This document shows positions 11,037-13,448 of a stretch of 17,751 nt of DNA, piece after piece. The DNA comes from Candidatus Bruticola sp. (GTDB lineage Bacteria; Vulcanimicrobiota; Xenobia; Xenobiales; Xenobiaceae), in contig JBJEGD010000006.1 of the NCBI GenBank assembly GCA_051874735.1, positions 52,647-70,397 on the forward strand. Reading direction: 5' to 3'. The position numbers were made by a program, and so were the translations under genes. The first letter of the stretch is position 1; every line of letters starts with the position of its first letter. The notes under the pieces are model-generated. The model saw only the letters and a program-made list of their open reading frames with translations, ran no database searches and had not been told where the DNA came from.

Positions 11037-11768
11037 ATGCGTCTAGACATAATAACTCTGTTTCCGGAAATGTTTGCTCCTCTATACACGAGCATCCCAG
11101 CTCGGGCTCAAAAGCGCGGTTTAGTTGAGCTGAAATTAGTAGATTTGCGGGCTTATGGCGTAGGGCGCCACCTACAAACAGACGATGTCCCCTACGGTGG
11201 AGGCAGCGGCATGGTTATGCAGCCGGAGCCTTTGGGACAGGCCATTGAAAATATTCCTAAACAGGGTGCGTCGCCCCACATTATCTACCTTTCTCCTCAA
11301 GGGCAGCGGTTAACGCAGAAAAAAGTAGAAACTCTTACCTATTCATACAGCCATCTGATTATGATCTGCGGCCATTATGAAGGTATCGATGAGCGTATAC
11401 TTCAAAGATATGTCGACGAAGAAGTTTCTTTGGGTGATTTTGTCATTTCCGGCGGCGAACTAGCTGCTATGGTGGTTGCCGATGCCGTTATCCGTCTTAT
11501 TCCCGGGGTTATCGATGATGAATCAGCTAAAAATGAGTCGTTCAGCACCGGCATTTTAGATTGTCCTTATTATACCCGCCCTCTAGATTACCGCGGTATG
11601 AGGGTACCCGAGGTCTTAACTAGCGGAGATCATAAGAAAATTGCTCAGTGGCGCCGACAGCAAGCCTTGCTCAGCACGGCTCGCAAGCGTCCCGACCTGC
11701 TGAAAAACCAAAATTTAACCCCCGAAGAGCGCGCTTTTCTGGCCGATTTTGGTTTTACTCAGCCTTAA
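11037..11768 (+). CDS. trmD: tRNA (guanine37-N1)-methyltransferase TrmD
   Basis: MRLDIITLFPEMF, DDVPYGGGSGMVM, CGHYEGIDER, SLGDFVISGGE, YTRP, VPEVLTSGDH. Confidence 0.98.
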   Translation: MRLDIITLFPEMFAPLYTSIPARAQKRGLVELKLVDLRAYGVGRHLQTDDVPYGGGSGMVMQPEPLGQAIENIPKQGASPHIIYLSPQGQRLTQKKVETLTYSYSHLIMICGHYEGIDERILQRYVDEEVSLGDFVISGGELAAMVVADAVIRLIPGVIDDESAKNESFSTGILDCPYYTRPLDYRGMRVPEVLTSGDHKKIAQWRRQQALLSTARKRPDLLKNQNLTPEERAFLADFGFTQP

Positions 11769-11935
11769 ATTATCATAAGAACTCTGTCAAATTACACTTG
11801 GCTTTTGTTCTTAACCGCAAATTTTCCGGCCTTAATTTAGGAAAGTTTTATAATTAGGAGCTCAGCAAAATCATCTTTTCCTGCAGCTCCGCTCTGCTGC
11901 CGCGGCAGTTTTCCTGCCGACGAGGGGCTTTACCC

Positions 11936-11964
11936 TTGCTTTTTTATATACTGTTTGCTAAAAT
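11936..11964 (+). promoter_or_regulatory. sigma70/sigmaA promoter with extended -10 upstream of the structured rplS leader
   Basis: TTGCTT (11936-11941), 17 nt spacer, TAAAAT (11959-11964), with TG at 11956-11957. The predicted start near 11970-11971 coincides with the start of a long hairpin. Confidence 0.75.
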
Positions 11965-12077
11965 GTTTTAGCCTTGCCTTGAGCTGCCCGTTAGAGCCGA
12001 TAAGAGTCGCTTACGTAAGGGCGGTTTGAGCATGGCAGAACGCAAGTTAGTCAGCGTTGAACCCGCTCGGCGAGAGT

Positions 12078-12199
12078 TACCGTAAAGCACACGGGAATCT
12101 GCGCTTGAGGAGAGCGGCAGCCCGCTTCCTACCATAAAAAGTAAGGGACGCCGTTCGTTGAGCCGAGAATCCCCAGGTTTTAGCCGTGGGGAGTTTCAA
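12078..12199 (+). ncRNA. Orphan IS200/IS605 (TnpB-type) right-end / omegaRNA scaffold
   Basis: TACCGTAAAGCACACGGGAATCTGCGCTTGAGGAGAG...TCGTTGAGCCGAGAATCCCCAGGTTTTAGCCGTGGGGAGTTTCAA follows, from recall, the layout of tnpB-associated right ends. It has the TCCCCA-GGT-TTTA-GCC-G-TGGGGA hairpin and a terminal TCAA. No tnpA or tnpB ORF is nearby. Confidence 0.75.
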
Positions 12200-12273
12200 T
12201 TGTGAGCAGGCTACAGCCAACAGGGAAAGTCCCCCAGAGGCAAGCAAGATTCGTTTAAAGAAGGATATCCACC

Positions 12274-12624
12274 ATGGATCTGATCAAAAGTATTGAGCGC
12301 GAGCAAATGAAAGAAAATTTCCCCAGCTTTGGCCCTGGCGACACCGTAAAGGCTTGGCTGAAAGTTATCGAAGGCGGCAAAGAGCGCTCCCAGGCTTTCG
12401 AGGGCGTTTGCATTAAGAGAGGCAATTCCGGCCTTAAAGAGAGTTTCACACTCCGCAAAATTTCCGGCGGTGTGGGTGTAGAAAGAACTATTTTAGTTCA
12501 CAGCCCTCGCTTAGACAAAGTTGAAGTTATTCGTCACGGCGCCGTACGTCGCGCTCGTCTCTTCTACCTCCGCGACCTCGTTGGTAAGAAAGCTCGCGTA
12601 AAAGAGAGACGCGTAAACCGCTAA
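12274..12624 (+). CDS. rplS: 50S ribosomal protein L19
   Basis: [52 protein letters not shown]. Confidence 0.98.
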
Positions 12625-12669
12625 TTCCGCTTTTTGTTACAGTAGGAATTGTCGATTTTTGCAGATACC

Positions 12670-12720
12670 ATACCGCAGAGAGTAGAGTGGCTTTGCCACC
12701 TTTCGCTGCGGTATTTTTTT
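12670..12720 (+). terminator. Intrinsic terminator after rplS
   Basis: ATACCGCAG (12670-12678) pairs with CTGCGGTAT (12706-12714), with an inner GTGGC-TTT-GCCAC hairpin, followed by a T run. Confidence 0.8.
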
Positions 12721-12842
12721 GTGAGGCGAAAGCAATACGCTCAGCCCAATATTCTCCCTATTATTAATTCTGCAGGGCTCTTGAAGACAGACACGCAATT
12801 CCATTCCTACCTCTAGTCCAGCAGGGAAAAAAGGTTTTCCGA

Positions 12843-13448
12843 ATGAGAGAAGAGCTATTAATCGTTATAATCTATATTCTAGTATTGCTGAGAATTGGCG
12901 TTTTTGTCTTTAGAAAACGCCTCTCCGTCGTTTGGAAGAACATCCTCAAAGAGTATCTCGATTCATTTATTGTAGCTGGTATAGTAGCCATCGTCCTTAT
13001 CACCTACATAGTGCGCAGCTTTTATATTCCTTCGGAATCGATGGTACCAACTTTAAAAGTTAATGACTACATTTTAGTTAATCGCTTTATTTACCAAATG
13101 GCTAAGCCCTCTCGAGGAGAAATTATCGTCTTCCATCCTCCGCACGTAGAGAATCCTGAAGAAACCGATTTTATTAAACGTGTAGTAGCTGTAGAAAACG
13201 ATGTTGTGGAAGTTGCCGGAGGCGTCTTGTACTTAAACGGCTTGCCTCAAGATGAACCGTTTATTAAAGAAAGAATTGAAGCCGATTTCCCAGCTTATAG
13301 AGTTCCTAAAGATCATGTCTTCGTTATGGGCGACAACCGCAATAATTCCGATGACTCACGCTACTGGGGCCCACTGCCTTTAAAGAATGTGGTAGGAAAA
13401 GCTTTTATTATTTTCTGGCCGATCTCGCGCCAAGGCATACTCAAATAA
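12843..13448 (+). CDS. lepB: Signal peptidase I
   Basis: Two N-terminal TM segments, IPSESMVPTL (catalytic Ser), FIKRVV (catalytic Lys), MGDNRNNSDDSRYWG. Confidence 0.96.
   Translation: MREELLIVIIYILVLLRIGVFVFRKRLSVVWKNILKEYLDSFIVAGIVAIVLITYIVRSFYIPSESMVPTLKVNDYILVNRFIYQMAKPSRGEIIVFHPPHVENPEETDFIKRVVAVENDVVEVAGGVLYLNGLPQDEPFIKERIEADFPAYRVPKDHVFVMGDNRNNSDDSRYWGPLPLKNVVGKAFIIFWPISRQGILK

Follow-up and report, generated by a model that had tools for sequence, protein, structure and literature searches.

What is the RNA scaffold of a transposon nuclease doing in front of a ribosomal protein gene? We asked this of a 17,751-nucleotide (nt) stretch of Candidatus Bruticola sp. (the window, numbered from its first letter). 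In it, the 505-nt spacer between trmD and rplS holds a unit at 12080-12199 (+ strand, as for all features below unless stated, ending in ...GGGGAGTTTCAA) that resembles the omegaRNA at the right end of IS200/IS605-family transposons bearing the TnpB nuclease. A reading made from the sequence alone had described a stand-alone TnpB-type omegaRNA scaffold with its 3' edge at 12199 and a guide-like flank, and had seen neither tnpA nor tnpB in the window. The list of open reading frames (ORFs) contains neither gene, and scaffold, edge and flank are borne out by the searches below. On balance, we favor the view that this solo omegaRNA/right-end module has been co-opted to act in cis within the rplS 5' untranslated region (UTR). 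Alignment of its copies shows the unit's fold and several of its single-stranded motifs to be under purifying selection.

Identity and fold of the unit

We built a covariance model, R1, from nine omegaRNA 3' regions, each located immediately after a tnpB stop codon, in Negativicutes records outside the genus (Selenomonas, Phascolarctobacterium and Anaerovibrio). In these records the transposon end lies 121-146 nt past the stop codon, and 122 nt past it in five of the nine. With filters off, R1 matched the window at 12011-12199 (+) with 27.8 bits and E=1e-6, ending on 12199; its next-best match in the window had E=0.52. Genome-wide, the R1 match to the unit has E=1.1e-3, and a sequence-only canonical profile (nhmmer) finds the unit with E=3.6e-5. 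The covariance-model check named in the sequence-only reading thus came out positive. When a full TnpB element was compared with the window by blastn, the only match was 29 nt long and lay at the right end.

The same end is found behind intact nuclease genes. Full-length TnpB ORFs in relatives of the same genus are followed by ...AGAATCCCC-hairpin-GGGGAGTATGTCAA, and the flanks after GTCAA diverge (L049 vs L068, plus at least nine foreign loci). Homologues of the G003 TnpB in 31 loci end with the same hairpin and GTCAA end, and the terminal-hairpin motif follows tnpB in Selenomonas, Phascolarctobacterium, Anaerovibrio, cyanobacterial, Poribacteria and Prevotella records. In R1 and in all copies, the 3' edge is the base homologous to 12199. 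The R1, nhmmer and blastn matches and the flank divergence support reading 12080-12199 as the omegaRNA-scaffold/right-end module of an IS200/IS605-family (IS608-like, TnpB-bearing) element, of which it would be the solo survivor. Its 5' limit was set from the TACCGTG start common to all copies.

In G008, a relative in the same genus, three loci carry a 385-nt repeat (93-97% identical) and a contig end truncates a fourth copy (L046:1241-1625, L021, L038, L030). The repeat has a left-end-like hairpin, a tnpB with an internal deletion in which the final ~60 codons can still be read as the zinc-ribbon/RuvC-III end of TnpB, the unit motif, and an end beyond which flanks diverge. This non-autonomous element has spread recently, in a genome without a detected full TnpB or TnpA. 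Given these repeats and the right ends of full TnpB elements, we dropped our first idea, a novel riboswitch or L19 leader unrelated to transposons.

Could the unit still be such an RNA, omegaRNA-like by chance? Its location in a ribosomal-protein leader and the presence of multiple copies before diverse genes are what a riboswitch would show. However, Rfam gave no match at gathering score in the window and none at E<=0.1 in nine related loci, and a permissive scan of 11700-12350 (E up to 10) returned only four chance-level matches, to eukaryotic long noncoding RNA and small RNA models. Moreover, a model of tnpB-linked RNAs matches the unit and ends at the transposon boundary, and the G008 repeats carry the same 5' module directly after a tnpB 3' remnant. 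We consider a chance resemblance extremely improbable. The Rfam family L19_leader, which we take to be RF00556, is likewise a structured leader before rplS and presumed autoregulatory, but the unit matches no Rfam family.

Folding the 142-nt stretch as a single sequence gave no significant structure (minimum free energy -49.2 kcal/mol, z = -1.78, 10 of 200 shuffles as stable), so support for the fold comes from comparison of copies. We aligned 19 distinct copies of the unit type; they come from three sets of orthologous sites, which precede rplS, a STAS-domain gene and a TPR-protein gene. A four-helix model pairs 91.9% of 397 cells in this alignment, compared with 28.7-47.6% when partners are slid by 1-3 columns. 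Nine of 21 pairs have changed on both sides, and none of 500 shuffles reaches the covariation score.

Hairpin H1 (12080-12094) pairs CCGT with ACGG (12080-12083/12091-12094; 12080-84/12090-94 in the helix model) in 98.9% of cells. Its pairs are invariant in the 19 copies, with no covariation, and its fifth pair, present in relatives, is lost in G000, the window's own genome, through a G to A change at 12084. Helix P2 (12104-12167), CTTG (12104-12107) with CGAG (12164-12167), closes the central domain; three of its five pairs have changed on both sides, with CUUGA/UCAAG, CCUGA/UUGGG and CUUGG/CCAAG as homologues in other copies. In helix P3 (12112-12156; GAGCGGC/GCCGTTC at 12112-12118/12150-12156), which includes one G-U pair, five of six pairs have changed on both sides, and C-G to U-A swaps are seen among the rplS copies; its pairing percentage is lowered because P3 aligns poorly in the TPR-locus copies. 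The inner hairpin within P3 (12126-12148) differs in sequence among copies and keeps its pairing. Terminal hairpin H4 (12170-12192; 12170-77/12184-92), in the motif GAATCCCC-loop-GGGGAG, is paired in 100% of cells and has one C-G to U-A compensatory pair, in six copies. The unit ends in the right-end terminal motif GTTTCAA (12193-12199; canonical GTATGTCAA), with TTCAA at 12195-12199; bona fide elements end in GTCAA and then diverge. The stems listed in the sequence-only reading (CCGT/ACGG, GAGCGGC/GCCGTTC, the inner and terminal hairpins) and its TTCAA end are all present. Its pairing of TTGAG (12158-12162) with that TTCAA is probably wrong, since it competes with the covarying P2.

The rplS unit is a diverged member of its family: it departs from the canonical form in its 5' hairpin and linker, and its score is far lower than those of young copies. 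In the per-genome R1 scan, the rplS copies of G000 and G008 score 24.7 and 29.9 bits, and the other six are not among the matches at E<=0.01. We consider the unit to stand alone because the spacer holds no tnpB or coding remnant by ORF list or tblastn. No left-end hairpin was seen by eye in 11967-12077, and blastn of the full element matched the right end only. All type-B copies have a common TACCGTG start, suggestive of a transposition boundary. TTAC stands at the left boundary of five of the eight copies in which that boundary was placed. We give no weight to the TTAC at 12076-12079, which resembles a target-adjacent motif: it arises from a 3-nt insertion specific to G000 and is absent from the other seven rplS copies. 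An origin of the 5' module (H1 plus GAATCT..GC) from the transposon left end found no support, since the local alignment scores of eight of nine copies lie within those of shuffles; the one low shuffle count, 2/300, belongs to the G000 copy with its own derived bases.

Conservation and possible role at rplS

How long has the unit been in the rplS leader, and has it been maintained there? We compared 41 genomes, G000 and 40 relatives. A DNA search found the spacer in nine of them, including seven of the nine genus relatives, and always between trmD and rplS. In this comparison of spacers, which the sequence-only reading had proposed, the unit occupies the same site in eight of the ten species of the genus. 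The spacers of the other two species lack it, measuring 136 nt in G005 (96% complete) and 430 nt in G002; by trmD protein identity these are the most distant members of the genus. A single insertion in the ancestor of the other eight species would be the simplest history.

When G000 is compared with the six other-clade species, identity is 0.28-0.40 at the four-fold sites of trmD, which are saturated, and 0.28-0.38 in the 5' leader at 11973-12032. At that distance an unconstrained relic would be expected to be randomised. The unit (12078-12199) is 0.71-0.75 identical, and the stretch in guide position (12200-12219) 0.95, with one C/T difference in 20 in the six other-clade copies and none in G008. 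The corresponding values are 0.88-0.91 for the 3' leader and 0.69-0.78 for rplS four-fold sites. G000 and G008, a pair without TnpB, share 0.88 identity in the unit, compared with 0.52 at trmD four-fold sites. Since it is nearly unchanged in related species, the unit is probably doing a job for its host rather than persisting as an inert scar.

The simpler alternative offered by the sequence-only reading was a decayed insertion sequence (IS) end. On this account, the unit would be the inert fossil of a non-autonomous IS end that either decays slowly or is conserved only as a wedge in a constrained leader. Neither effector nor left end was found, G005 does without the unit, single-sequence folding is not significant, and a few positions that are otherwise invariant have changed in G000. 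Yet the unit keeps its identity where trmD four-fold sites and the adjacent 5' leader have fallen to 0.28-0.40, three helices carry compensatory changes, and a sister copy before rpoB shows like conservation. Conservation and covariation together disfavor the inert fossil, and we regard it as quite unlikely.

Under the favored reading of cis co-option, the unit would have entered the rplS leader in the ancestor of eight of the ten species, between a promoter at 11936-11964 and an older leader hairpin, and would have been inherited vertically since. It would be transcribed within the rplS 5' UTR, because no terminator follows it, and would serve as a compact folded cis module, a stabilising or insulating RNA domain with no guide-RNA role. 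Such a module could determine how long the mRNA lasts, how it is processed, or how accessible the regulatory hairpin and ribosome-binding site downstream of it are. The sequence-only reading had left two functional options. A cis-element of rplS fits G000 better than a guide RNA acting in trans, because no TnpB-like ORF was found there and the guide has no second target; neither option is proven.

TnpB, guide targets and sister units

If the scaffold still served a TnpB, where would the protein be encoded? The G000 assembly (92% complete, 42 contigs) has no match to the TnpB models PF07282, NF040570 and PF01385, no match to PF01797 and no Y1 transposase (TnpA). When the TnpBs of three relatives were searched against it by tblastn, only one marginal match appeared, at G000:C3:73439-73588, which we rejected as a small unrelated zinc-ribbon protein. 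A custom hidden Markov model (HMM) of 20 TnpB homologues matched none of the 21,390 six-frame ORFs of G000. The tnpB or tldR gene that the sequence-only reading had suggested looking for was therefore not found in this assembly by models, tblastn or clade HMM. In the window itself, the unit's neighbors are trmD and rplS, with no tnpA or tnpB.

The picture in the genus is mixed. TnpB zinc-ribbon matches above cut-off occur in eight of ten genomes, with long frames only in G003, G006, G007, G009 and G002. G008 and G004 have only TnpB remnants or a partial zinc-ribbon match, and G001 has a 111-amino-acid (aa) remnant plus a 306-aa frame that runs off its contig. Whatever the TnpB state of a genome, its rplS unit is conserved. 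In G009, many R1 matches lie exactly at contig ends (e.g. C169:1-115, C20:1-115, C166:1-97), which implies that the element is multi-copy and breaks assembly and that TnpB counts in drafts are lower bounds. The TnpB of G003 (L049:634-1737), which carries PF07282 and PF01385, is 81-83% identical to TnpBs of Selenomonas, Phascolarctobacterium and Anaerovibrio (L101-L109), far above the expectation for unrelated lineages. This level of identity suggests recent horizontal spread of TnpB among bacteria of a common habitat.

The stretch in guide position, TTGTGAGCAGGCTACAGCCA (12200-12219), is conserved ancestral rplS leader, with the homologue TTTGAGCAGACTTACGGCCA in another genus, g4. Its invariance is therefore uninformative about guide function. 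Its only perfect match is the locus itself, where it is preceded by the transposon end. The target search proposed in the sequence-only reading yielded no second site: the best other site in G000 has three mismatches in 20, and the viral_contigs collection has no exact match (no plasmid or other phage collection was searched).

These searches bear directly on a further explanation, that the unit serves as guide RNA to a nuclease-dead TnpB relative that has been domesticated (TldR-like) and regulates rplS and other unit-bearing core genes, either at the DNA level or by attaching to the scaffold within the mRNA. Exaptation of the TldR type exists in the literature accessible to us, and like TldR guide RNAs, as described there, the unit would be a TnpB-derived RNA component linked to host gene regulation. 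Because units immediately precede the ribosome-binding site at many core genes, any protein bound to the scaffold would cover the region of the start. In known TldR systems, however, the guide RNA gene adjoins tldR: the protein is exapted and encoded beside a guide that matches a distant promoter. In our case, Pfam/NCBIfam models and the clade HMM revealed no TnpB-like ORF in G000, and none adjoins the unit. The 'guide' is the adjacent leader, has no second target in G000 or viral_contigs, and as a would-be target is preceded by the transposon end TTCAA rather than TTAC. We consider a TldR-like system very improbable.

The unit is not alone in the genome. The sequence-only reading had proposed a BLAST search for sister copies; against its own genome, this found none because the copies are too diverged, and a motif pattern, the covariance model and nhmmer did find them. 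The 5'-part motif has three occurrences in G000 and 6-10 in each of the seven further unit-bearing members of the genus, giving 64 matches in 19 genomes of the family compared with one for a reversed control pattern. R1 matches per genome number 2 in G000, 1 in G002, 5 in G008, 7 in G004, 8 in G006, 10 in G001, 13 in G003, 24 in G009, 25 in G007 and 0 in G005. The top-scoring stand-alone copies resemble PATEs (protein-less derivatives of IS605-family elements) and consist of a left end of ~120 nt joined to the last ~190 nt; these young copies score 105-119 bits with R1, compared with 24.7 bits for the rplS unit. The old copies are solo right-end/omegaRNA units.

G000 has at least five solo units, each 4-75 nt 5' of a same-strand start. 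Besides the rplS unit, they precede rpoB (G000:C42:40699-40818 (L131), - strand, 28 nt from the start; R1 68.9 bits, E=1.4e-16), an aldehyde dehydrogenase gene (G000:C13:71049-71186, + strand, 35 nt), a TPR-protein gene (G000:C13:138604-138723, - strand, 38 nt) and, in degenerate form (nhmmer E about 0.01-0.02), a gene read as glutamate dehydrogenase (G000:C5:13144-13273, - strand, 35 nt). The rpoB unit is near-canonical and is preceded by an attenuator-like hairpin and a T-run. Its conservation extends, with compensatory changes, to G008, G004 and G001, and between clades 83/115 and 87/115 positions are identical, compared with 23-32/120 just upstream. Units in relatives precede rpoA, ftsZ, secD, atpF and genes for a STAS protein and UDP-glucose dehydrogenase. 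Orthologous copies group by locus and not by genome, which argues against ongoing homing or gene conversion.

The same co-option appears, from these placements, to have occurred at other core genes: rpoB in G000, and rpoA, ftsZ, secD and atpF in relatives. A broader version seems to us rather unlikely. In it, the genus would have domesticated the omegaRNA scaffold and not TnpB, after a burst of mini-transposons put the module before the ribosome-binding sites of core genes (rplS, rpoB, rpoA, ftsZ, secD, atpF and others) as a shared, selected 5'-UTR device. The device might be a common stability or processing element, or a handle by which one RNA-binding factor, TnpB or a host protein, co-regulates the mRNAs of the growth machinery.

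An active family also invites a selfish explanation. The unit may still be a trans-acting stand-alone omegaRNA whose scaffold is loaded by a TnpB encoded elsewhere (unassembled or recently lost), with the guide at 12200-12215/19 directing cleavage of the empty site after excision. Decayed scaffolds would be lost, and conservation would reflect survivorship rather than host benefit. Full-length TnpB and/or TnpA is present in four to five genus relatives, the family is active in relatives (24-25 R1 matches in G009 and G007, plus PATE-like copies with left and right ends), the conserved motifs are the canonical omegaRNA ones, and G005 can be read as an empty site. In addition, stand-alone omegaRNAs and PATEs acting in trans are described in the accessible text of two papers (PMC10691335, PMC10055086). 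G000, though, has no TnpB or TnpA, and in G008 and G004, which show no full-length TnpB, the unit is equally conserved. With no left end seen, a cycle of excision and retention looks impossible for the rplS copy. The low scores of the rplS copies with the canonical model and the grouping of orthologous copies by locus also count against this selfish role, which we regard as possible but unlikely.

Several observations nevertheless weigh against cis co-option. A search for RNA runs over 11500-12900 listed none, and we infer co-transcription, processing and any effect on rplS from the sequence. The motifs kept (GAATCC-hairpin-GGAGT-GTCAA) are those kept in working omegaRNAs across phyla, a pattern that accords no less well with continued TnpB binding than with a new host role. 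The IS200/IS605 transposase chooses single-stranded DNA targets, and sense placement by highly expressed genes may reflect that choice, with insertion into strands that transcription exposes. As to that placement, 18 of 22 representatives end 4-75 nt before a same-strand start preceded by a Shine-Dalgarno (SD) sequence, two lie at 125-184 nt and two have no such start by the script's rule, but the representatives were hand-picked and include recent G008 duplicates. Motif and R1 scans found no such unit at all in G005, whose rplS leader is short; a close relative can thus do without the unit. In G000, the otherwise invariant positions 12084 and 12195 have changed and one C has been lost from the C-run 12171-12174, which could mean relaxed constraint. 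Finally, the absence of TnpB is weak evidence because multi-copy IS elements are often lost from draft assemblies like that of G000.

Which known systems does the unit resemble? Miniature transposon relics that are co-transcribed with neighboring genes include the Correia elements of Neisseria and ERIC/REP-type repeats. If the cis reading is right, the rplS unit would work as they do, as a folded relic in an mRNA that alters stability, processing or expression. Those relics belong to another transposon family, have another fold and are not guide-RNA scaffolds. Closer in origin are the stand-alone omegaRNAs of OMEGA (TnpB/IscB) systems, which, in the accessible part of their description, have no adjacent effector, are 'evidently mobilized' and work in trans, with a role given as unknown (PMC10691335). 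Like them, the rplS unit combines a scaffold and a flank-derived guide with no adjoining effector or transposase gene; it also belongs to a multi-copy family, and its relatives hold compatible TnpB elements. In contrast to the omegaRNAs described there, which are mobilized and have an effector in the same genome, the rplS unit occupies a fixed orthologous site, apparently in the rplS 5' UTR, is constrained, and has no effector found in its genome. The PATEs of Geobacillus stearothermophilus are protein-less IS605-family derivatives that, in the accessible text, 'often encode omegaRNAs' needing TnpB in trans (PMC10055086). True PATE-like copies exist in genus relatives, but the rplS unit has no detectable left-end hairpin, is old and diverged, and is conserved between species.

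Our literature search turned up no description of an omegaRNA that lacks an effector and is conserved within a host 5' UTR; paper supplements, which may list such loci, were not covered. In the accessible text of the papers found, published OMEGA exaptation concerns the protein (TldR, sigma-TnpB, Cas12). The rplS locus and its sisters before rpoB, rpoA, ftsZ, secD and atpF offer a concrete, testable case. The host may have kept the RNA half of a transposon nuclease for its fold, or TnpB may have an unrecognised relationship with core-gene mRNAs. Either outcome, if true, would widen the known roles of guide-RNA scaffolds. For annotators, omegaRNA-like matches in leaders need not mean a nearby nuclease.

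The rplS leader around the unit

By our reading of the ORFs, the operon order in the window is ffh, rpsP, a KH-domain gene, rimM, trmD, rplS, lepB, ylqF and rnhB. The spacer is bounded by trmD (11037-11768) upstream and by rplS (12274-12624) downstream. The latter, named from its sequence and the operon order, encodes ribosomal protein L19 (116 aa), with 84-98% protein identity to relatives.

The sequence-only reading had noted a good promoter ~110 nt upstream of the unit, and this site is conserved both within the genus and in one other genus. Read from the sequence, it consists of TTGCTT (11936-11941), 17 nt and TGc-TAAAAT (11956-11964). Six genus relatives have TTGATT-17-TGgTAAAAT, and genus g4 has TTGCTT-17-TGCTAAAAT. 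Transcription is predicted from this promoter-like site to start near 11971. A consensus promoter scanner did not list 11936-11964, because its -35 matches at only 3/6 positions. A terminator scan found no terminator-like site between it and rplS.

Between promoter and unit, a conserved leader segment (12033-12077) contains GCGTTGAACCCGC. It is 0.80-0.84 identical between deep clades, has a recognisable homologue in G002, a species without the unit, and is absent from other copies of the unit; it is thus locus-specific and lies outside the repeated unit. Within it we noticed a T-loop-like GCG-TTGAACC-CGC.

Downstream of the unit lies the ancestral rplS leader (12216-12281), which is also found where the unit is missing, in G005 and G002 and in the genera g4 and g5. 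It comprises a predicted hairpin, GCC..GGGA-loop-TCCC..GGC (12216-12241), the stretch AGATTCGT (12247-12254), which could pair with ATGGATCT in the start-codon region (12274-12281), and the SD sequence GAAGGA (12260-12265). All pairs of this structure are invariant among copies, and we regard it as a candidate L19 autoregulatory site. The family-wide hairpin at 12216-12241, separate from the transposon-derived unit, would be a better candidate for the L19 operator than the unit itself. In genus g4 the promoter stands 27 nt before the homologue of the 'guide' stretch; the window therefore has extra sequence between promoter and ancestral leader, with its 3' edge at 12199.

The trmD-rplS spacers of G004, G001, G009 and G003 (L011:1952-2061 (-), L014, L013, L016) hold a second unit, of another type, in tandem. 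It lies upstream of the promoter and ends in a GTTC-like sequence, and the spacer grows to 582-666 nt. A different TnpB lineage (421 aa) in L063 and L064 (G001:C9, G003:C14) has the right end ...GGGTAGTTCAC, like the GTTCAC end of this second type. The two types of solo unit have a common 5' module and different 3' ends, which hints at mosaic origins. At L136 (G007:C1:58330-60250), a young PATE-like copy has apparently inserted into an older unit of the other type, within its upstream portion, and the flank of the copy resembles the GGGATAAAGG..GCGAAG segment common to units of that type.

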